A DNA stretch of 64,000 bases, taken from NCBI GenBank assembly GCA_051251855.1, contig JBPOGI010000002.1:416001-480000 (forward strand). The letters run 5' to 3'. Numbering within the stretch: the stretch's first letter is position 1; every line of letters starts with the position of its first letter. A program made the translations under genes and the position numbers. The notes beneath the pieces were generated by a model that had not been told where the DNA came from, did not search any database, and was given only the letters and a program-made list of their open reading frames with translations. The stretch comes from Roseibacillus sp. Lineage in GTDB: Bacteria; Verrucomicrobiota; Verrucomicrobiia; Verrucomicrobiales; Akkermansiaceae. Shown here in pieces: positions 1-59,715 of this stretch.

Positions 1-1774
1 TAAGTTCGAATACGACTTCGGCTTCGAATCAGCGGCAGCTTGTCCTAGTGTTTCAGTGGTTGATCTCAATGGAGATGGTTGGGATGATTTTTATTTGATG
101 GCTCGGTGGGGGCGCAATCAGCTCTTTATCAATCAGCAAGATGGCACCTTTAAGGAAAGCGCCGCTGAATTCGGACTCGATATTCTCAATCACTGCACGG
201 GAGCAGCCTTTGTTGACTTTGATAATGACGGGGACAAGGACCTCATCCTCAGCCGGAGCTACGCGCGCAGCCAAATCCTTGAAAATGTAGGAAATAGGTT
301 TCACGATGTCAGTCGTTCCTGCGGGGTCGAACTTCCTGCGATGGCGACCTCGGTTTCTGTCGCCGACTATAATAGGGATGGTCTGCTTGATGTCTTCTTC
401 ACTACCTACGGGAGCGACCGGCTCCTTCGTGAGTTTCTTCCCATGTCGCAGCAGGAGGAGCTAGCGGCGATATCATCTCAGGGGAAGCATCATCCGGTCT
501 TGAATGCCTTGGGGGCTCCCAATGTCCTATTGGTCAATCGTGGGGGAGGGAAGTTCAAGGTGGCACCCGAGTCACCTCAATTGGCAGGATGGAAGACAAG
601 CCTTTGCAGTGTGTGGGCGGACTATGATCAGGACGGAGATGCGGACCTCTATGTCAGTAACGACTTCGGTCCAGATGCTCTGATGAGGAACGACTACCCG
701 AACGGGTTCAAAGATGTGACTCTCGAGGAGGGGCACGAGTCCATGGCTGGATTTGGGATGGGAGTTTCTTGGGGAGACTACGACTTGGATGGGGCACAGG
801 ATCTCTACATCTCTAACATGTATAGCAAGGCTGGTCTCCGCATTGGGAAGCAGATTGAAGGGATAGACCCGCGATTCGAGAAGTTTAACAACGGCAACCG
901 TCTCTACCGTCGAAAGGAGAATCACTTTGAGCTCACTTCAGGCTTAAAGCCACCTGAGCATCTTGTGGCGAAAGTCGGTTGGTCTTGGGGAGGGCAATTT
1001 GCGGATTTTAACAATGATGGCTTTTTGGATATTTATGTGCCGTCCGGCTACTTCACCGCGCCCGATGCGGTGGCGGGCGGCGATGATTTGTGAAGTGTCT
1101 ATTGGCGCGGTGCAGTTTGCACCGACCCCGGTTTGGAGAAAGGATTTCGCAACAACAAAGGATGGAAGGACGTCGACTTTGATAGCTTCGTGGTTCAGAA
1201 GCAGGACGCTGATGGCAAATGGTTTGCGCAATCCTTTAGTGGTCATGAAACCAATAAGCTCTTCATGAATCAAGGAGGGGAATCTTTCTTCGATATGTCA
1301 GCTTTAGCCGGTTTGGATAGTGATGCCGATGGGAGATCTTTCGTCCTTTTGGACTACGACCGGGATGGTTGGCAGGATTTGATTCTAGTGAATTCGAACT
1401 CTCCTCAATTGGAAATTTTCCACAATGAAATGGGCCGAAGGTCATTCGGAGGGCGGAGTATCGTGTTTCATCTGATTGGAGGGAATGAAAGTTCGGAGGC
1501 GAGCGAAGAGTGGTCGAATCGAGATGCCCTGGGTGCTGTTGTGACCGTCAAAGTAGCTGGGAAAACAATCATGCGGGAGTTGCGTTGCGGAGAAGGACTC
1601 GGTGCGCAAAATTCTGGAATGTTACTGGTCGGTATCGGCGAGAACGAGATGATTGAATCTGGTGAGGTGAGATGGCCCTCGGGTAAACGTCAGACGCTCG
1701 ATGCTCTCGAAGCAGGAATGTTGGTCACGATAAAAGAAAGAGGCGGAATTGCCGTAAGGACCTATAACCGTTGA
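1..1774 (+). CDS. FG-GAP/VCBS-repeat + ASPIC/UnbV (CRTAC1-like) protein, 5'-partial, with in-frame TGA at 1091-1093 (putative selenocysteine)
   Basis: The frame is open from position 2 (KFEYDFGFESAAACPSVSVVDLNGDGWDD). It has repeated DxDxDGxxD motifs. ORFs 56..1093 and 1133..1774 are in the same frame, joined by TGA-SVYWRGAVCTDPG, and a hairpin follows the TGA. The C-terminus has an ASPIC/UnbV-like segment (NRDALGAVVTV...GEVRWPSG). Confidence 0.85.
1108..1124 (+). promoter_or_regulatory. Putative bacterial SECIS hairpin 1
   Basis: CGGTGCA-GTT-TGCACCG is a perfect 7-bp stem. Its loop starts with G after a 21-nt spacer from the in-frame TGA. Confidence 0.75.
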
Positions 1775-2930: not shown

Positions 2931-3013
2931 ATTCCCCTTGAGAGTCCAAATTGGGCACAGTATTGCCAGTTCTTTCGATGAAGCCGAGAGAGATTTCGCT
3001 CACCTATTCTTCG

Positions 3014-6000
3014 ATGCAATCATACACGTTATTTCAAAGCCTTGTTTTCGCTTCGGCTTCGTTTTTCTGGGTAGCTCCTCTTCAGGCTATTCCCAAAGTT
3101 TTGGAAGACGAACCCGAGATCATTGCTGCTCCAGGTTTAGAAAATAGGGAACTCGTCGGACCGCTGTCAGAGGTCATTGATCGCTTGTCTCCCAAAGATG
3201 ATGGCTGGGATACCGAGGCCTTTAGTGAGGCCGCTTCCGCTCAGTTGTATCGCTTGGGCGCTCTCTTGAAGTCTCCCGAGAGAGAGGACTCTGCTTACGC
3301 ATCCCTTGCCGATGAGGAATTCACTTCCGCTGTTCTTCGCCCTGATGAGAAGAATCTGGACCTTCTGGAAGGCGACGAATTTCAGGTTCGAAAATGGAAT
3401 GGCGTCATCGATTCCTCAAAGACCCTTTCTCTTTCGGAGGCTTGCAACCAGTTCCGCTCCGCCTTTGCAGCAGACGAAAAGTTGCAACTGGCAAGCAAGC
3501 TCTACAAGGTGATGCCGCAGGGCGAAGGAGTGACCCAGACTGATGTCCTGGTGGAGGCTGCGGGCAAAGCGCCTGCTGCCGGACGCCGCCAGATCAATGC
3601 CGAATGGAGATGTCATTGGAAGGATGAGGAAGGCCAGCCTCAGCTCACGAAAATCGAGCTTCTGAGTTATCAAGAAGTGACTCGTCCCTTGGGGGAAGGA
3701 AAGCCCCTCTTCTCCGATCGAACGAAGGAGGCTTTGGGCCGCAATGCGAGCTTGCAGGAGCAACTCCTTCATTCCTCGGATCATTGGCGGGCCCGATTTC
3801 CGCGGGACCTCGGGCTGGACGTGGTCGCGAACGTGGGCTTCGTGCTGGCAGACCTCAATGGTGATGATTTAGAGGATCTCTATTTTTGCCAGCAAGGCGG
3901 CCTTCCCAACCTGCTCTTTCTTCGGCAACCGAATGGCACCTTCCGAGATGCTTCCGAAGGGAGTGGGGTTGATTGGCTTGATTTTTCTCCCAGTGCGTTG
4001 GCCATTGATCTCGATAAAGATGGCGACCGCGATTTGGTGGTGGCCTTGCAGTTCGAGTTGCTCTTGATGCGCAACGATGGTCAGGCCAAGTTCGAGATCG
4101 TGACCCGCGTTCCGGTTCTGGCGCAGACTTTCTCAATCAGTGCCGCGGACTACGATCTCGATGGCGACCTGGATCTTTTCTCGTGTGGCTATAATCCAAC
4201 GATGGAAGACTTGGAAGAGAGCGGTGCCTTAGGTTCTCCTACCCCGTTCCATGATGCAAACAATGGGGGACCCAATACCCTGCTGAAAAATGTCGGGCCC
4301 TTTGAGTTTCGAGATGCGACTGTGGAGAGTGGCTTGAGCGAACAGAGCAACACTCGCTTTAGCTTTGCTTCTGGTTGGGAAGACTATGACCGGGATGGTG
4401 ACCCTGACCTCTATGTTGCCAACGACTACGGTCGCAATAATCTTTATCGCAATGATGAAGGGAAGTTTGTGGACGCTGCTGGTGAACTGGATGTGGAAGA
4501 TATGTCCTCGGGAATGTCGGTGAGCTGGGGTGATGTCAATCGGGATGGAAAGAGTGATCTTTATGTGAGCAACATGTTTTCTTCGGCGGGCAATCGGATC
4601 ACCTTTCAAAAGCAATTTCAAAATGGAGGGGCGGGGGAAGCTTTGGATACTTTCAAACGTTTCGCACGAGGTAACGCCCTCTTTCTAGGAACTCCAGAGG
4701 GAGATTTTGATGATGTGAGCGAGGAAGCCGGAGCGACGATGGCACGTTGGTCTTGGGGGTCTCGTCTCGCGGATTTGAACAATGATGGGTGGGAGGATAT
4801 TCTCGCGGCCAACGGTTTCATTAGCACGCCCGATACGGGAGACCTCTGAAGTGTCTATTGGCGACAGGTCGTGTCGCTCTCTCCGATTGATGACTTTAAT
4901 GAGCAAGCGTTGCAAAAGTATAAGCACCGCTGGAGTGCCTTGTCTCGCTTGCTTCATGAAGACCGTTCCTTCAGCGGGGGGGAGCGGCATAACGCATTTC
5001 TCAATTTGGGGGAGGGCCGTTTTGCCGATATCTCGGCGGTGACCGGTTTTAACTTTGCGGAAGATGGCCGGGCTTTGGTGACTCAAGATTGGGATTTTGA
5101 TGGCGACCTTGATGTCTGGGTCACGGCACGGACAGCGCCCCGAGTGCGTCTTCTCGAAAACCAATCGCAGAACAGTGGAGAGTCCGTCTTCATTCGTTTG
5201 CAGGGGAATGGAACGACTTCGAACTCAGATGCGGTCGGGGCTCGTTGCGAAGTTTGGTTGGTGGATGATGAGCGGCCTCTGACTCGTTCTCGGACCGCAG
5301 GAGATTCCTTTCTCTCGCAAGGAAGCTCTTGGCTTCACTTTGGACTGGGTGCCGAGCCTCAGATTGCGCGGGTCATTGTTCATTGGCCCGCTGGTCAGAG
5401 TGAAGAGTTCACCGGGATCGAGAGTGGGGGGCGGTACTTGCTCCATCAAGGACAGCCCCAAGCGAAACAGTGGAGTCCTCCTGCCCAAGTGAAGCTCGCC
5501 GAGGCCAGTCCGCTTGAATTGCCTCATGAGACCGAACAAGCCCGGATTGTGCTCCCCAACTCTTTGTTGTTGCCCCTCCTGGAAACAAACGAAGGCGAGG
5601 CGATTTCTGACCCGAGCAAAAAGGGTCCAATAGTGATTAATTTATGGTCTCAGACTTGTTCTTCTTGTCTCGAGGAACTGAAGGAGTGGACCGAGTTCGC
5701 TCCTCAATTGAAAGCGGCCGGCCTTCGGGTCTTGGCCCTCAATACTGATGCCATTGCTCAGACTGGCGATCTTCCAGAGGGACAAGAATTTTTGCGCGAG
5801 ATCGAGTTTCCCTATTCTTCCAACTCCACCAACGAGGACACTCTTCAGCGATTAGACATTTTTCAGCAGAGCTTACTGGACCGATGGCTTCCACTCCCTA
5901 TTCCTTGTAGCTTTCTTGTGAATGCTTCTGGCAAGGTGGCGGTGGTTTACAAGGGTCCCGTTGCTGCAGAGACCTTGCTCGCGGATTTAGCTCTGCTCGA

Positions 6001-6811
6001 AGCTGATTCTGTCACCTTAAGGAACAAGGCCACTCCCTTCTCCGGTAGGTGGGCTGCTGGCCCTCCTCTGATTGGTCCGAAAAGATACGTCGCACGACTT
6101 CTTGATTTCAAAAAAGTTGTCGATGCTGAGCGCTACTATCGGCGCTATCTCGAGTTGGAACGTAAGTTTCCTGACTCGCCGTCGGGTCCGAGGGCCTCTG
6201 CTTTGAAGTTTCTCGCCTTTGTGGCCTCGGGGCGAGAGGACTATGCCTCAGCAATTAGCTACCTCGAGGAGGCTGTTTCTCTCTTTCCTCAGGAACCGGA
6301 ATTTCAGCAACTCCTGAAAACGGCTCAAGACAAGAGGCGACTCTCGTCTCCTAAAGAGACTTTAAAGCCCCTGTTGGCCCAAGTGGAAGCAGAGCCCAAG
6401 AACGGTCAGGCTCATTTGGCTCTTGCTGATGGCTATCGCGACATGGGAGAACCCGCCAAAGCAATCGAAAGTTACAAGAATGCATTGAGACGCGAACCAG
6501 GATTGTTCGTGGCGGCAGGAAAGCTCGCTTGGATTCTAGCAACTCATCCGAGTCCTGAGATTCGGGAGCCAAAAGCAGCCTTGGAGCTGGCCAATCGGCT
6601 CATGTCCCTGAACGCAGCGCCGAATCCCAACTTCTTGGACCTTCAGGGAATCGCGCTCGCTGCTAATGGAGACTTCGCTGCGGCCGTTAAAAAGGCTCAA
6701 GCGGCCTTGGTGCTTTTGCCGGAAGGCTCTCCTTATCAGAAGGAAGTGAGTTCCCGCCTTGGTCTCTATAAAGAAGGAAAAGCCTATTATGAGGGTAAGG
6801 CTTCCAAGTAA
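3014..6811 (+). CDS. 1265-aa FG-GAP + ASPIC/UnbV + thioredoxin-like (CxxC) + TPR protein with in-frame TGA at 4847-4849 (putative Sec612), paralogue A
   Basis: ORFs 2951..4849 and 4871..6811 are in frame, linked by TGA-SVYWRQV. ATG 3014 was chosen by homology to ATG 7063. Features: hydrophobic N-terminus, DxDxDGDxD repeats, UnbV motif WLHFGLG...VHWP, redoxin motif NLWSQTCSSCLEEL, C-terminal TPRs. Confidence 0.85.
4861..4877 (+). promoter_or_regulatory. Putative bacterial SECIS hairpin 2
   Basis: GCGACA-GGTCG-TGTCGC. The loop begins after a 17-nt spacer from the TGA, and the CAGGTC apex resembles the E. coli fdhF SECIS apex. Confidence 0.75.
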
Positions 6812-7062: not shown

Positions 7063-10000
7063 ATGCAGTCATATAATTCATTTTCAAGCCTTGTTCTGGT
7101 TTCGACTTTTTTTCTCTGGGCGGCTCTTGTTCAAAGTGCTCCCCAAGCTTCGCAAGACGAACCTGAAATCATTGCTGCTCCTGGGTTGGATGAGAGAGAG
7201 TTGGTGGGGCCGTTGTCCGAGGTGCTCGATCATATGTCTCCCAAGGATGATGGCTGGGATACCGAAGCCTTCAGTGAGGCCGCATCTGCACAATTGTATC
7301 GCCTAGGCAACCTCTTGAAGTCTCCCGATATGGATGCCGCGACTCTCGCGGACCTCACGGATGGTAGTTTTGTGTCCGCAACTCTCCGACCCAAGGAAGC
7401 CTCTCTCGATCTCTCGGAAGAAAGCGAGTTTGAGGTTCGCAAATGGAATGGCGAACTCGATTCAACAAAGGCTCTTACTCTTTCTGATGCCTCTCTTAAA
7501 TTCCGCGCTGCCTTTGCTCCCGAAGAGGTTTTGCAAATCAAAACCAAGCTTTACAAGGTGATGCCGCAGGATGGGGGAGTCACGCTCACCGATGTCTTGG
7601 TGGAGGCCTCTGCCAAAGCTAGCACCTCTGGACGCCGCCAGATCAATGCCGAATGGAGGTGCCATTGGAAGAGCGAGGACGACCAGCCGTTGCTCACTCG
7701 AATCGAGCTTTTGAAGTATGAGGAGGTGACCCGTCCCCAAGGGAAAGGCCAGCCTCTCTTTGTTGACCGGACCAGAACCGCGCTCGGCAATAACGCGAGC
7801 TTGGATAAGCAACTCCTGCATTCCACGGACCATTGGCGGGCACGGATTCCGCAAAGTCTGGGTTTGGATGTGGTGGCGAACGTGGGTCTATTGCTCGCGG
7901 ACCTGAACGGTGATGATTTGGAAGACCTTTACGTTTGCCAACAAGGAGGCTTGCCCAACCTGCTCTTCCTGCGTCAACCGGATGGCACCTTTGTCGATGC
8001 TTCCAAAGAGAGTGGGGTTGATGTCCTTGATTTTACAGCGAGCTCCTTGGCCATCGATCTCGATAAGGATGGCGACCGCGATTTGGTGGTGGCTTTGCAG
8101 TTCGAACTCATGTTGATGCGGAATAATGGCCAAGCGAAGTTCGAGCTGATGGCTCGGGTTCCATTAGCCGCTCAGACTTTTTCGATCAGTGCCTCTGACT
8201 ACGACCTGGACGGCGATCTCGACATTTTCACCTGCGGTTATAATCCGTCATTGCAAGAGGCTGAAGAAAATGGAGCGTTAGGTTCTCCTTCTCCCTTTCA
8301 TGATGCCAACAATGGCGGACGCAATACTTTCTTGAAGAATGTGGGAGCCTTTGAGTTCCAGGACGTGACTGTGGAAAGCGGCATCAGTGAGCAGAACAAC
8401 ACTCGCTTCAGTTTTGCTTCTGCTTGGGAAGACTATGATCGTGACGGCGATCCCGACCTTTATGTCGCCAACGATTACGGGCGTAATAACCTTTACCGTA
8501 ACGATGGCGGAAAGCTGGTAGATGTCGCCGCTGAATTGAAGGTAGAGGATATGTCTTCGGGGATGTCGGTGAGTTGGGGCGACCTGAATCGTGATGGTCG
8601 AAGCGATCTCTATGTGAGCAATATGTTTTCTTCGGCAGGGAATCGCATCACCTTTCAAAAGCAGTTTCAAAATGGAGGGGCAGGGGAGGCCTTGGATACT
8701 TTTCAACGATTCGCGCGAGGCAATGCTCTCTTCCTTGCCACTCCCGATGGAGGCTTCGATGATGCCAGTGAGGATGCGGGAGCGACCATGGCTCGATGGG
8801 CTTGGGGCTCTCGTCTGGCGGATTTGAATAACGATGGTTGGGAGGATGTCCTGGCTGCCAACGGCTTCATTAGCACCCCCGATACGGGAGACCTCTGAAG
8901 TGTCTATTGGCGACAGGTCGTGTCGCACTCTCCCATTGATGACTTTAGTGAGCAGTCGGTGCAGAAGTATAAGAATCGTTGGAGCGCCTTATCGCGTTTG
9001 CTCCGCTCTGATCGCTCCTTCAGTGGCGGAGAGAGGCATTGTGCTTTCCTCAATCTGGGGGGAGAGCGTTTTGCCGACATCTCGGCGGTGACGGGTTTTG
9101 ATTTTGCAGAAGATGGTCGCGCCTTGGTGACCGAGGATTGGGACTTCGATGGCGACCTCGATGTCTGGGTCACCGCACGAACGGCTCCACGAGTGCGCCT
9201 CCTTGAAAATACTTCTCAGAATGCGGGAGAGTCTCTTTTCCTCCGCTTGCATGGGAACGGAACCACAACGAATCCAGACGCGGTGGGGGCTCGCTGCGAA
9301 GTCTGGTTAGAGGGAGATGACAGACCTCTCACCCGTTCTCGCACTGCGGGAGACTCCTTCATTTCTCAAGGGAGTTCTTGGTTGCACTTTGGGCTCGGGG
9401 TGGAGCCGAAGATTGCGCGAGTGATTGTTCATTGGCCTGCTGGTCAGAGTGAAGAGTTCACAGGGATTGAGAGCGGAGGACGCTACCTTCTTCATCAAGG
9501 GCAGCCGCAAGCGAAAGGTTGGAGTCCTCCAGCGCAGGTGAAGTTCGCAGAAGTCAGCCCTCTTGAGTTGCCTCATGAGCCCGAACAAGCCCGTATTGTT
9601 TTACCGAACTCGCTTCTATTGCCTCTCCTGCAGACTCATGAGGGTGCTGCTATTTCTGACTTCAATAAAGAGGGGCCAACGCTCATCAATTTGTGGTCTC
9701 AGACTTGTTCTTCATGTCTTGAGGAGTTGAAGGAGTGGACCGAGTTCAAACCTAAATTCGAGGCTGCGGGTTTGAGGGTGATAGCTCTCAATACCGATGC
9801 TATCGGTCAAACTGACGAGAGCTCTGAGGGGCAGGATTTTCTGAGCGAGATCGAGTTTCCTTATTCAGCTCAGTCCGCCAACGTGGAGACCCTGCAGCGA
9901 TTGGATCTCTTTCAACAAAGCTTTCTCGACCGATGGCTTCCGTTGCCAGTTCCATGCAGTTTCCTGCTGGATCGTTTCGGTAAGGCGGCGGTGATTTATA

Positions 10001-10860
10001 AAGGCCCTGTCGCAGCAGAGACTTTGCTCGCGGATTTGGCCCTGCTTGAAGCCGATTCTGAGACGTTGAGGAGTAACGCCACCCCCTTCGCCGGTATCTG
10101 GGCTGACGGTCCACCTCTAGTGGGACCGAAAAGCTATGTCACCCGGCTTTTGGACTACAAGAAGCTGGCCGATGCCGAGCGTTATTACCGGCGCTACGTG
10201 GAGATGGAGCGCAGCCTTCCGGACACCCCTTCGGGACCCATGATTGAAGCCTTAAAGTTTCTCGCTCTTCTTGCTTCTCGAACAGAGAACTTTGCTCCCG
10301 CAGTAGCGCATCTTGAAGAAGCAATTTCTATCGTTCCAGAGGACCCTGAGCTGCAACAGCTTCTTAAGGAGGCTCAGGAGAAGCTTAAAGGTGCCACTCC
10401 GACGGATCTGTTATCGCCCTTGCTGGCCAAAGTGGAAGCCGAGCCAAAAAATGGGAAAGCTCATCTCGAACTTGCGGATGCTTATCGTAATCTTGGAGAA
10501 GCAGCGAAAGCGGTCGAAAGTTATAAGAACACGCTGAGGAACGATCCGAAATTGTTTGTGGCCGCTGGGAAGCTGGCTTGGATTCTCGCAACTCACCCCA
10601 GCCCAGAGATTCGTGAGCCAGAGGCGGCTTTGCAGTTGGCGAATCGACTCGTGGCGATGAACGGAGCAATGAATCCAAATTTCTTGGACCTTCAGGGAAT
10701 CGCGCTGGCAGCTAATGGTAAATATGAAGCGGCCGCAGAAAAAGCTGAAGCGGCCTTGCCGCTCGTGCCAGAAGGCTCTCCTTACCAGAAGGAAATTCGT
10801 TCCCGCCTGAGTCTCTATCAAGAGGGGAAGGCCTACTTTGAGGGAAAGGATTCTAAGTGA
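7063..10860 (+). CDS. 1265-aa FG-GAP + ASPIC/UnbV + thioredoxin-like (CxxC) + TPR protein with in-frame TGA at 8896-8898 (putative Sec612), paralogue B
   Basis: ORFs 7063..8898 and 8920..10860 are in frame, linked by TGA-SVYWRQV. The gene is collinear with 3014..6811 and has the same length. Confidence 0.87.
8910..8926 (+). promoter_or_regulatory. Putative bacterial SECIS hairpin 3
   Basis: GCGACA-GGTCG-TGTCGC, identical to 4861-4877. Confidence 0.75.
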
Positions 10861-10948: not shown

Positions 10949-11638
10949 TTATAGGCGGTTTCTTCGGAAGAAAAAGATGCCCAAAGTCATTGAGGCGAAG
11001 AGGGGAAGGCTGGGCTCGGGCACGGCAGAGAAGGTGCCAAGCATCCTGACGGAGAAATCACCCGCCGGGCCGTTGTTAAAACTAAATTGCAAGCTATCGA
11101 CTTGCGAGAAGTCGGTGGCGCTCGCATTGGTGAAGGAGGAGAAGGGAAAGTCAATGAGGGTGTCGTTGGTGAGGGCGCTCGCTTGAAGGATTTGGAGGCT
11201 AGCGACCTGACTGTTGATGTCGGTTACTGAGACGCTGATTTCGAGATTTGCATCAGAGTCGGCAACGAGGAAGGCGAGCGAGGTAGCGCCACCTGCCGAG
11301 AGGTCGAAGCCACCGAGTCCGGCGCTATTGGCATCATAGGTGAGGGAGAGGTCGGCGGTGAGACCGGGGCCGAGTTCGGCAAAGTATTGGCCTGTGACAG
11401 AACTGACACCCACATTGGCAGTACGCGCAAAAGGGTTAGAGGTGACTGTTACCTCGATATTGCGCCAAGCTCCTGGAATGGAGTTTGAGGGATCTTGGAA
11501 GCTCTGTTGATGGGAGCCGGAGGAAACGGAGAGAGGGCTAGGGCCTGAGTCAAAGTTGTCGAGCGCCTGAACCAAAGTCAGTGCGGCTGGGCAATTGAAG
11601 GAGACGGCAAAAGTGCAAAGGAGAGTAGGGCGAATCAT
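10949..11638 (-). CDS. PEP-CTERM sorting domain protein
   Basis: Signal-like N-terminus and C-terminal VPEPS-hydrophobic-RRNR. Confidence 0.88.
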   Translation of the reverse strand: MIRPTLLCTFAVSFNCPAALTLVQALDNFDSGPSPLSVSSGSHQQSFQDPSNSIPGAWRNIEVTVTSNPFARTANVGVSSVTGQYFAELGPGLTADLSLTYDANSAGLGGFDLSAGGATSLAFLVADSDANLEISVSVTDINSQVASLQILQASALTNDTLIDFPFSSFTNASATDFSQVDSLQFSFNNGPAGDFSVRMLGTFSAVPEPSLPLFASMTLGIFFFRRNRL

Positions 11639-11686: not shown

Positions 11687-12430
11687 CTACAAGCCTTCTC
11701 GACGCCGTCTGAGACATACTCCGAAGCTAGATATTGCAATGAGTATCAAAGAAGAAGGCTCTGGAATCGATTGAGTGTTAACTGCTCTGACAGAGACTTC
11801 AGATATCACGATGTCGGGGGCTCCTTGGCCGGTAATATTGTGCACTTCTACCTGCAGGGAGGTGAGATTTTGCATGTCGATACTCTCAAAGACATCATAA
11901 GGAATGTCGACTTGCTGGCGAGAATAGTTGGCTTCTTGTCGGAAGACGTGGGTCTCAGGGAGTCCACCGAGGGATTCCATGGAGATTTGGATTTCGAAGG
12001 GGGCTTGTGAGAACTCGACTAAGAGTCCAAGGCAATTGGCGGCGTTCGACATGGTCATATCGAAGGTCATGCCGCTGGGGGCTTGATAGTCCAACCAAGT
12101 CCGAGCGCTCACCCCAGGGCCGTAGGAAAGCACGAAGATGCCATGTTCGGCGGCGATTTCGGCAGTGACGGATCGTTCTTCAGGGATGAGGTTCGCGTCG
12201 ATGCCTAAGTTGCGCGTCCATCCTTGAAGGAGGCTTTCATTCTGAAGAGGCATGGAACTTTGCTGGGCTTCGACGGTGCGTAGCGAGAGATTCTGAGAAC
12301 CTTGGGAAAAATTGTCGAGTTGACCAATGGTGACCGCGAAAGCTTGGCTAGAAAGGGAGAAGACAAGGCTCGGAAGTAGGCTTCTTGTGCGGAGGAGGTT
12401 GTTGAAAGAGGGGAAGGTAGGCATGAACAT
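11687..12430 (-). CDS. PEP-CTERM sorting domain protein, distant paralogue of the neighbouring gene
   Basis: C-terminal IPEPSS-hydrophobic-RRRR. It shares LDNF, GxxRN and GPG motifs with 10949..11638. The start is uncertain (12430 or 12424). Confidence 0.85.
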   Translation of the reverse strand: MFMPTFPSFNNLLRTRSLLPSLVFSLSSQAFAVTIGQLDNFSQGSQNLSLRTVEAQQSSMPLQNESLLQGWTRNLGIDANLIPEERSVTAEIAAEHGIFVLSYGPGVSARTWLDYQAPSGMTFDMTMSNAANCLGLLVEFSQAPFEIQISMESLGGLPETHVFRQEANYSRQQVDIPYDVFESIDMQNLTSLQVEVHNITGQGAPDIVISEVSVRAVNTQSIPEPSSLILIAISSFGVCLRRRREGL

Positions 12431-12680
12431 CAAGAGGACTTAAAAACTAAGAACCCTGAGAGCTGATTTCGTTCATGCTTTTGTTGAGATTTTTTAGAAG
12501 AGGAGGAGCCTACTGCGAAAGCAAGGCTGCAGAGTGAAGCTGAGTTGAACAAGTCGGGCTGTAGGACTATCAAAATGCTCTCCAAACCTCTTTTGTCATT
12601 GGAGTGCTCCGGAGAATCTTTTCCTAAAACCAATAGCTACCTCTCCATCGGGGGAAATCATGCTTTGGTGGACGACAGAG

Positions 12681-45699: not shown

Positions 45700-46428
45700 A
45701 TGACTAGATTCAGAAGCCTAGGACAGGAATTATTGGAGAAAGAAGACGGAGAAGTTTCAGCTGCGATCTTGCCTTTCGACCAAGTGAATGTAGCTACCGC
45801 CTTCGAGACGGCCACCTTTGGGATGGGATGATTCTGGGGGCCGGATTCCGAGTTCGGAAGCCTTCCTGGAGTTTTACGCACACGCGCTGGTTATTGTGGT
45901 GGCGAGAAAGTGAAGCCGACCTATCGCTCGATGGGGGATCATACCGAAGCAGTTTCGATTGATTACGATCCGATGGTGATGAGCTATCTTGATTTACTGA
46001 AAGAGTTTTGGGCGGGGCATCGCTGTGATTCGCTGAATCGGAGCACGCAATATATGAATGCCGTTTTCTATCGTGATGAATCTCAGAAGCAGGCGGCGTT
46101 GGAGTCGTTGGATCGGGAGGCGCATCGTTTGGGGTTAGCAAGCGCGCGGGTGGCGACCAAGGTGGTGCCGGTGAATCACTTTACCTATGCTGAAGGGTAT
46201 CATCAGAAGTATGCGCTCTCGAGGACGAGCGAGTCGCGGCTTTTTCTGGAGAGTGTTTATTCGACAGCCAAAGAGTTGGCCGACTCCACGGTAGCAACGC
46301 GGCTCAATGCTTACTTGGGAAGTGGGATGGAAAGAGACTGGGGGGCTTTCGCGACTGAGTTGCCTGAGTATGGGTTGCCCGAGGCGCTGGAGAAGAGGCT
46401 TTGTGAGCTGGCAAAAGAGCGGGTGTAA
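45700..46428 (+). CDS. msrA: Peptide-methionine (S)-S-oxide reductase MsrA, selenocysteine-containing (TGA 45829-45831)
   Basis: ORFs 45646..45831 and 45910..46428 are in frame and read ATFGMG*FWGPDSEFGSLPGVLRTRAGYCGG...PTY...DHTE...AEGYHQKY. The TGA occupies the catalytic Cys of GCFWG. Confidence 0.93.
45836..45865 (+). promoter_or_regulatory. Putative bacterial SECIS of msrA
   Basis: Upper stem TTCCG-AGTT-CGGAA (45846-45859) and lower stem GGGGGC/GCCTTC. The loop G follows a 20-nt spacer from the TGA. Confidence 0.78.
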
Positions 46429-58212: not shown

Positions 58213-59715
58213 ATGGCAGATAAAAAATCGGACATCGGATTGATCGGCTTGGCCGTGATGGGGCAAAACCTCGCCCTCAACATCGCGGACCATGGGTTCC
58301 AAATTTCAGTTTACAACCGCACCACGTCCAAGACGGACGCTTTCGTGGCGGAGAACCCCGACACTCCGGGTGGGGTGGTGGGGACTCAGACTCTTGAAGA
58401 ATTCGTTGAATCTCTCGAGCGCCCTCGCAAAGTCATCATTCTGGTTCAGGCCGGTCGCGCCACTGACGCGGTTATCGATGGCTTGACGGAGCTTCTCGAT
58501 AAGGACGACATCATTATCGACGGCGGTAACGCTCTTTGGACCGACACCATTCGTCGTGAGAAAGACCTCAACGAAAAAGGATTCCGCTTCGTCGGTTCCG
58601 GTGTTTCTGGTGGAGAAGAAGGGGCCCGTTTCGGCCCATCTCTCATGCCCGGCGGCAAGGAGTCTGCCTGGAACGAATTGAAGCCCATTTGGGAAGCAAT
58701 CGCTGCCAAAGTGGATGCCGATACTGGCAAGCCCATCGACGGCGCGACTCCCGGCAAGCCCGTCACAGGCGGTGTCACTTGCACCACTTACATCGGCGAG
58801 AACGGTGCTGGTCACTATGTAAAGATGGTTCACAACGGCATCGAGTATGGCGACATGCAGATGATTTGTGAGGCTTATCAACTCATGGGCAACCTCCTCG
58901 GGATGGAGCCCAAGGCGATGAGCGAGACCTTCGGCACTTGGAACGAGGGCGTCCTTGATTCCTTCCTCATCGAAATCACCACTGACATTCTTCAGCAGAC
59001 TGACCCTGAGACCGGCGCGCCATTCGTCGACATCGTTCTCGATACCGCTGGTCAAAAAGGCACTGGCAAGTGGACCGCCGTCAACGCCCTCGACATGGGC
59101 ATCTCAGCACCTCTCATTGCGGAGGCCGTATTTGCTCGCTGTATTTCTGCAGTGAAAGATGAGCGCGTGGCAGCTTCCGAAGTTCTCGGAGCGAACGTTC
59201 CTGGATTCGAAGGTGATAAAGAAGAGTTCGTGCAAGCGATTCACGACGCTCTCTACTGCTCCAAGATTTGTTCTTACGCCCAAGGCTTCCAGCTCATGCG
59301 TGAGGCGCAGAAGGAGTATGACTGGAACCTCAACTTCGGTGAGATTTCCATGATTTGGCGTGGCGGTTGTATTATCCGTGCCGCCTTCCTTCAGAAAATT
59401 TTCGAAGCCTATCAGCGTGACGAGAACCTCGCCAACCTCCTCCTCGACCCGTTCTTCAAGAGCGAGATTGAGCGTTGCGAGGCCAACTGGCGTAAGGTGG
59501 TTGCAGCAGGTGCCATCCACGGCGTGCCGATTCCAGCCTTCTCATCAGCACTCGCTTACTACGACAGCTACCGCAGCGCGCGTCTTCCCGCGAACTTGTT
59601 GCAGGCTCAGAGGGATTACTTCGGTGCTCACACTTACGAGCGCACTGATAAGCCACGCGGCGAGTTCTTCCACATCGACTGGCCCGAGGCTGACCGTCCT
59701 CAACTCAAGATGTGA
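58213..59715 (+). CDS. gnd: 6-phosphogluconate dehydrogenase, decarboxylating
   Basis: Motifs [36 protein letters not shown] and [12 protein letters not shown]. Confidence 0.97.

Follow-up and report, generated by a model that had tools for sequence, protein, structure and literature searches.

In the 64-kb window (the whole stretch of DNA that was analysed), four genes are each interrupted by an in-frame TGA and split in two by annotation, and each TGA is followed at a short distance by a compact hairpin. This raises the question of whether the TGAs are read as selenocysteine (Sec), whether the hairpins have been selected as RNA structures, and whether they define a SECIS (selenocysteine insertion sequence) class of their own lineage. 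As argued below, the four hairpins are very probably ordinary bacterial SECIS elements, directing the upstream UGA to be read as selenocysteine.

Genes interrupted by an in-frame TGA

Gene 1 (2..1774, forward strand; its frame begins some 750 nt upstream of the window) encodes an FG-GAP propeller with an ASPIC/UnbV domain, of the CRTAC1-like type. It contains one in-frame TGA, which together with the preceding Leu codon TTG occupies 1088..1093 (forward strand) and would place Sec in the motif D-L-U-S-V-Y-W-R. Gene 2 (2978..6811, forward strand, start approximate) adds thioredoxin-like and TPR parts to the FG-GAP and ASPIC/UnbV domains and has its TGA at 4847-4849, and gene 3 (7063..10860, forward strand) is a duplicate of gene 2 whose single in-frame TGA lies at 8896-8898. 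In the fourth gene, msrA (PF01625; 45700..46428, forward strand, start approximate), the TGA at 45829-45831 lies in a G-U-F-W motif and is preceded by the Gly codon GGA (45826-45828). Across each of the four TGAs the frame is open and the Pfam domains are continuous. For the propeller part of genes 1 to 3, CRTAC1 (9etn) is the sole relative with a solved structure. An assembly error at the gene 1 site is argued against by a 211-nt contig from another study (depth 2), which is identical over 1028-1238, a segment holding both the TGA and the hairpin. Small exported proteins are encoded between and beside the three CRTAC1-like genes (2014-2859, 10949-11638, and 11687-12433), two of them with PEP-CTERM tails.

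The hairpins are found exactly where the original prediction had placed them, 17-21 nt after the in-frame TGAs. The gene 1 hairpin (1108..1124, forward strand; CGGTGCA-GTT-TGCACCG) has 7 Watson-Crick pairs and a GUU loop, with the apex G at 1115, on codon +8, after a 21-nt spacer from the TGA at 1091. The gene 2 hairpin (4861..4877, forward strand; GCGACA-GGTCG-TGTCGC) has 6 Watson-Crick pairs and a GGUCG loop whose first G, at 4867, follows the TGA at 4847 by a 17-nt spacer; an identical hairpin is found in gene 3 (8910..8926, forward strand), with the first G at 8916 and the same 17-nt spacer after the TGA at 8896. The msrA hairpin (45846..45859, forward strand; TTCCG-AGTT-CGGAA) has 5 Watson-Crick pairs and an AGUU loop, its G at 45852 following the TGA at 45829 by 20 nt. 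The loops thus span 3-5 nt and the stems 5-7 bp, with no bulge, and all four stems are present in both the predicted minimum-energy and the centroid folds of 45-nt windows (-15.3, -10.0, -10.5, and -18.3 kcal/mol). In the window, Rfam gave no match at gathering thresholds. Intrinsic terminators were considered and rejected, as by inspection no U run follows any of the four stems; a strong hairpin with a U run does lie downstream of the terminal TGA at 59713.

It had also been claimed that three different stem sequences converge on one geometry. Around the site, genes 2 and 3 share 82.5% identity over 601 nt, and the first 14 nt after the TGA are common to genes 1 to 3; these genes are paralogous, so the window holds two independent families rather than three, and the claim has to be narrowed to that extent. 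What stands is that the gene 1 hairpin is genuinely remodelled. The alignment of family members with gene 1 is ungapped (W-R-A-V-V-R-T-D-P vs W-R-G-A-V-C-T-D-P), and the other members fetched carry the apex on codons +6/+7 (17-18 nt), in contrast to codon +8 (21 nt) in gene 1. From this alignment we infer that gene 1 has re-formed its hairpin, with no indel, one codon downstream; no close orthologue of gene 1 was found, the best match being 55%. The gene 1 hairpin also encodes a Cys (1118-1120) nine residues past the predicted Sec, at a position mostly occupied by Arg or Ser in relatives, and this Cys is a possible resolving partner for the predicted Sec.

Decoding of the UGA codons

The genome encodes the complete Sec machinery: tRNA-Sec (selC), selB, selA, and selD all score over the cut-off, selD with an in-frame TGA of its own. 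The C-terminus of SelB aligns with the solved winged-helix structures of SelB (1lva/2uwm/2ply/1wsu; E 9e-8). According to the available text of two sources, SelB-GTP-Sec-tRNA is already bound to the hairpin, through SelB domain 4, when the ribosome arrives; Sec is then delivered at the UGA or, should delivery fail, RF2 terminates translation (PMC7026636; PMC13188914). By the same route, SelB would very probably bind each of the four hairpins, and the UGA just upstream would be read as selenocysteine.

The distribution of the TGA is consistent with such decoding. One TGA is present in 89 of 97 CRTAC1-like family matches from 61 related genomes (the 8 matches lacking it are the weakest or partial), in 45/45 matches to the gene 1 query, and in 15/16 MsrA matches. 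selA is present in 29 of 60 relatives; all 16 other genomes with TGA-bearing members of the CRTAC1-like family have selA, and no family match at E<=1e-10 was found in the 31 relatives without selA, counts that come from kin and are not independent. Likewise, all 11 other genomes with a TGA form of MiaB have selA.

The UGAs might instead be read by another route, such as near-cognate read-through as Trp or Cys or a recoded genome, or the genes might be pseudogenes or truly split. UGA followed by A is a leaky context in E. coli, and 80 of 81 UGAs in the CRTAC1-like family are followed by A. Moreover, UGA-to-Trp reassignment has been reported in some Verrucomicrobiota, according to the consulted part of PMC13462651. 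Against this, TGA terminates 661 well-scored genes in this genome, and the residue aligned with the UGA in stop-free homologues is Cys (D-Y-C-S in four stop-free members of the CRTAC1-like family and G-C-F-W in a stop-free MsrA), observations on which a UGA-to-Trp recoded genome was rejected. The TGA is furthermore kept across phyla and, among the relatives, occurs only in genomes with selA. Together, these points leave any such route exceedingly improbable. Two further observations on the tRNA genes are a second tRNA-Trp(CCA) call of 87 nt (G000:C1:686953-687039) and ten tRNA genes clustered in a 1.5-kb stretch (G000:C10:114076-115599).

Hairpins at candidate Sec and terminal TGAs

Two rules were used to score hairpins. 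The literal rule follows the original prediction, that is, an A-G(G)U apex, a spacer of 17-21 nt, and a perfect stem. The generic rule takes its terms from the published consensus: an unbroken stem of at least 5 pairs, at least 4 of them Watson-Crick, a loop of 3-6 nt whose first or second base is a G with G or U after it, and a spacer of 16-37 nt (the folds of the held-out sites described below had been inspected before this rule was coded). None of the control TGAs at 1772, 10858, 51459, and 59713 passes either rule. The literal rule is passed by 0/661 terminal TGAs and 3/4000 sampled Cys codons, and over the window by 8 of 2265 TGA triplets, namely the four sites and 4 out-of-frame or antisense triplets. 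It was, however, fitted to these four sites, so that the weight rests on held-out and cross-species tests.

Held-out sites were obtained from a scan that was blind to hairpins, which combined our own gene caller with coding scores computed to either side of a TGA (22 of 85 rows were kept, the others being set aside on visual inspection as antisense frames or ordinary junctions between genes), and from a search for selD. This yielded 19 further candidate Sec sites, 14 of them supported by a family match and the other 5 by a motif alone. The family-supported sites belong to FdhA, SelD, DUF3179, thioredoxin/TlpA types, peroxiredoxin, VPGU, deiodinase-like, SelW-like, and MiaB proteins; one of the 14 is a weak metal-binding match and two are paralogues sharing one hairpin. 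The generic rule is passed by 11/14 family-supported sites and 14/19 held-out sites overall (5/19 fail), compared with a background of 50/661 terminal TGAs and 271/4000 sampled Cys codons. Hairpins of this kind are thus not equally frequent after ordinary terminal TGAs (11/14 vs 50/661; Fisher p 4e-10), an outcome on which the original prediction had staked its case. Folding energy, by contrast, was rejected as a discriminator, as its z-scores do not separate recoded from terminal TGAs, and against shuffles the four window hairpins are ordinary (z -0.06 to -1.74).

Selection on the RNA structure

A hairpin located inside a coding region may be nothing but a by-product of a conserved peptide (here W-R-Q-V-V-S and D-S-E-F-G) and of GC content, in which case the UGAs could be recoded while the structure is unselected. 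The weak folding z-scores agree with that view, and synonymous shuffling of the four window sites gives a passing hairpin in 10-18% of trials. Several comparisons nevertheless speak against it. The generic rule is passed by 78 of 81 distinct CRTAC1-like contexts (three of which are the window's own) compared with a synonymous-shuffle mean of 18.7%, by 15/15 MsrA contexts compared with 12.8% under synonymous shuffling, and by 18/23 sites of this genome compared with 2.6 expected. In the CRTAC1-like family, third codon positions are close to invariant within the hairpin (Gln CAG 42/42, GTC 70/78, Val GTG 69/71, Ser TCG 45/46) and only there, those adjoining it being mixed (GAT 41, GAC 40). Two ungapped family alignments of 47 and 27 sequences show pairing of 99.3% and 98.1%, with 2 and 4 compensated pairs; this pairing is reached by 0-1 of 500 shuffles and lies above all slid registers, p values being overstated since the sequences are related by descent. 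The G-U of the apex is invariant in 47/47 gene 2/3-type and 15/15 MsrA sequences.

For MsrA, a pairing test in one register is not above shuffles (137/500 reach it), because the family uses two registers, with 4 of the 15 sequences, including that of the window, in the other one. The Gly codon of MsrA switches with the register, being GGA in 4/4 Glu forms and GGG in 11/11 others, a point against a mere by-product of the peptide.

The clearest contrast is provided by MiaB, in which the peptide after the Sec/Cys position is near-identical in the Sec and Cys forms. A hairpin passes the rule in 12/12 TGA forms vs 1/33 Cys forms (45 copies read of 59 matches), three Cys-form congeners being among those without it. 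The near-constant peptide, combined with a hairpin found only rarely in Cys forms, supports selection on the structure; the one Cys-form MiaB with a hairpin is a point on the by-product side. In SelD, all 22 TGA forms have a rule-passing hairpin, at 33 nt, and one Cys SelD lacks it. Similarly, no hairpin passing the rule follows the site in four Cys-form CRTAC1-like genes and one Cys MsrA (in one fetched set of stop-free CRTAC1-like matches, 3 of 5 went unscored because the motif could not be placed). A similar contrast between Sec and Cys forms has been published for hydrogenases, as described in the part of PMC13582414 that was available. As a side observation, a switch between Sec and Cys forms of MiaB is found inside one genus, with 6 TGA and 3 Cys forms among 9 genomes, all of which have selA (L153, L210-L259).

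Considering the 78 of 81 hairpins kept, the compensatory changes, and the MiaB contrast, selection on the RNA structure of these hairpins, as originally proposed, is well supported by sequence comparison, and we consider an origin as mere by-product to have next to no probability. The reading as SECIS elements also suggests why their sequences differ: since a hairpin must encode protein as well, each family would build it from the codons that its peptide permits, so that stem sequence and spacer would be family-specific and only the N-G-(U/G) apex common.

Candidate Sec sites across the genome and the lineage model

Beyond the blind scan, a hairpin-guided scan added 7 candidate sites in 6 genes, including ArsC; these sites are circular for any hairpin count. 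In total, approximately 30 candidate Sec-UGA sites in approximately 28 genes were collected, a large selenoproteome for a 5-Mb genome. In the 30 candidate sites, the spacing from the UGA to the apex G ranges over 18-34 nt (10/30 within 17-21 nt), and the base preceding this G is G in 13, A in 10, C in 6, and U in 1; at 5 of the 30 only three unbroken pairs are present, so the apex call is uncertain there. The loops are mostly 4-5 nt long with G in second place.

These data bear on the draft SECIS model that had been put forward for the lineage, with an A-G(G)U apex at 17-21 nt on a perfect stem, and on the related idea of a distinct class read by a specialized SelB. Such a class fits all four window sites and almost nothing else in the genome, and the recognition stretch of SelB does read S-R-R-I where the solved structure has S-R-K-Y. 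The draft model, however, fits 0/14 family-supported and 0/19 held-out sites, spacers range over 18-34 nt with four different bases before the G, and all four window hairpins fit the published generic model. A covariance model, which had been envisaged as the next step, did not transfer either: built from the gene 2/3 family, it recovers genes 2 and 3 and, weakly, gene 1 (E 0.029), but misses msrA and every site in 24 other Sec-candidate loci, the search covering the window and 26 loci (88,905 nt) while the whole genome was scanned by rules instead. A lineage-specific class is accordingly very unlikely, and the draft model does not hold beyond the window. The element shared by the candidate sites of the genome is the generic N-G-(U/G) apex of ordinary SECIS elements.

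Several of the collected sites deserve mention on their own. The arsenate reductase ArsC (L260, G000:C9:312528), missed by the blind scan, has a TGA in its N-terminal U-x-x-S motif and a 7-pair hairpin. A membrane protein without a family match (L155, G000:C1:1073661, minus strand) has an in-frame TGA in a Gly/Gln-rich linker; of the 7 congener loci with orthologues (L158-L164), 5 retain the TGA, followed after about 22 nt by a GGUC apex, and in one congener (L162) a single hairpin is preceded by two TGAs spaced six codons apart. This protein is a candidate for an unlisted selenoprotein. In a small membrane protein, also without a family match (L263, G000:C6:322786 and 322750, minus strand), two in-frame TGAs lie 12 codons apart, each with its own hairpin. 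The other hairpin-guided candidates (L261, L262, L264, and L265; G000:C1:1055439-, C1:1392628-, C8:392860-, and C9:357797+) include one U-x-x-C near the C-terminus, one U-x-C in a large membrane protein, and two thioredoxin-like N-termini recognized by eye, one with a weak Pfam match.

Natural variation on this scale is of practical interest. The genome would offer about 30 SECIS variants read by one SelB, and the Sec/Cys pairs of MiaB isolate selection at the RNA level while the peptide stays constant, making the tolerance for apex and spacer directly testable.

The codon preceding candidate Sec-UGAs

A bias of a different kind is found immediately 5' of the candidate Sec-UGAs. A four-fold codon precedes 18 of the 30 sites (4 of these 18 being hairpin-guided candidates); its last base is a purine in 16 and A in 14, compared with 48/130 and 25/130 for terminal TGAs without start overlap and with 6.5% A before Cys codons. 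Terminal TGAs in ATGA start-stop overlaps were excluded from the control because such overlaps create an A excess of their own (44/57 overlapping vs 25/130 not). On the 3' side, U follows the UGA at 1/30 candidate sites vs 150/670 terminal TGAs.

The bias recurs within families, where the counts come from relatives and are not independent. In MiaB, the preceding codon is GGA or GGG in 12/12 TGA forms vs 15/33 Cys forms; in the TGA forms of SelD (L266-L287), it ends in a purine in 18/22 vs 39% in the gene body; and in the CRTAC1-like family (L029-L084, L181-L209), Leu before the TGA is TTG or TTA in 71/80 vs 18% gene-wide. Counterexamples exist, as MsrA shows only 8/14 and window genes 2 and 3 use CTC.

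Folding as the sole cause of this bias was rejected. In the CRTAC1-like family (n=76), the mean predicted stem probability is 0.35 with CTG and 0.43 with TTG, yet CTC and CTT score higher (0.53 and 0.52) and are rare, and at 21 genome sites the preceding codon has no effect on stem probability (mean difference -0.03). According to these predictions, folding may account at most for the avoidance of CTG. In yeast and mammalian cells, an A or purine just before a stop raises read-through, and in bacteria upstream positions matter (PMC4615788, in the portion available). On the codon before the bacterial Sec-UGA no literature was found, most older subscription papers lying outside the search, and of all the leads this bias alone may be new.

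We put forward, with somewhat less than even confidence, that the P-site codon acts as a second cis signal besides the SECIS element, purine-ending codons and mostly those in A (GGA, ACA; TTG/TTA for Leu) being selected, with CTG further avoided in the CRTAC1-like family, where GAYCTG would pair with the apex CAGGUC; this proposal goes together with the selenoproteome of about 30 sites and its several unlisted families. As a guess, a purine-ending P-site codon would weaken RF2 termination or favour delivery by SelB. Sec insertion is incomplete: in E. coli about 40% of ribosomes achieve it, according to the consulted part of PMC7026636. If functional, the purine bias bears on this partial insertion and provides a design rule for recombinant selenoproteins.

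Comparison with known systems

The apex of the E. coli fdhF element, which we take to be CAGGUC as quoted in the original prediction, is the same in genes 2 and 3, and the fdhA and selD genes of this genome have similar G-G-U-C-U loops. The E. coli fdhF SECIS has a bulged U, whereas the window stems are unbulged, and the spacers in this genome extend up to 33-34 nt. In the bacterial consensus (the bSECISearch model, as summarised in the available text of PMC13188914), an in-frame hairpin has a 3-9 nt loop, a 4-16 bp stem, a G as first or second loop base with G or U next to it on the 3' side, a spacing of 16-37 nt, and an energy below -7.5 kcal/mol. All four window hairpins agree with it in every term and show no defining difference from it; the loops of this genome, mostly 4-5 nt with G second, occupy a narrow part of the allowed range.

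MsrA is listed as an experimentally verified selenoprotein family in the consulted part of PMC13188914, and the window's msrA, with its TGA in G-U-F-W and a Cys in the stop-free homologue, shows no difference from selenoprotein MsrA (PF01625). Neither the 119-entry table of PMC13188914 nor the available main text and four supplements of deep-Sep (PMC12013277) include the CRTAC1-like family. The present analysis would secure four genes split by annotation as single selenoproteins, including this family that is absent from the 2026 catalogue table. The closest precedent is that of Kim et al. (2016), whose Table S9 (PMC4807772, as far as available) contains ASPIC/UnbV FG-GAP selenoprotein candidates from Planctomycetes P1 and P2. 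These belong to the same domain family, are likewise split in two by annotation, and have a SECIS called in 3/4; Table S9 gives Gly as the homologous residue and lists the candidates without sequences or structures, whereas Cys forms of the family were found here.
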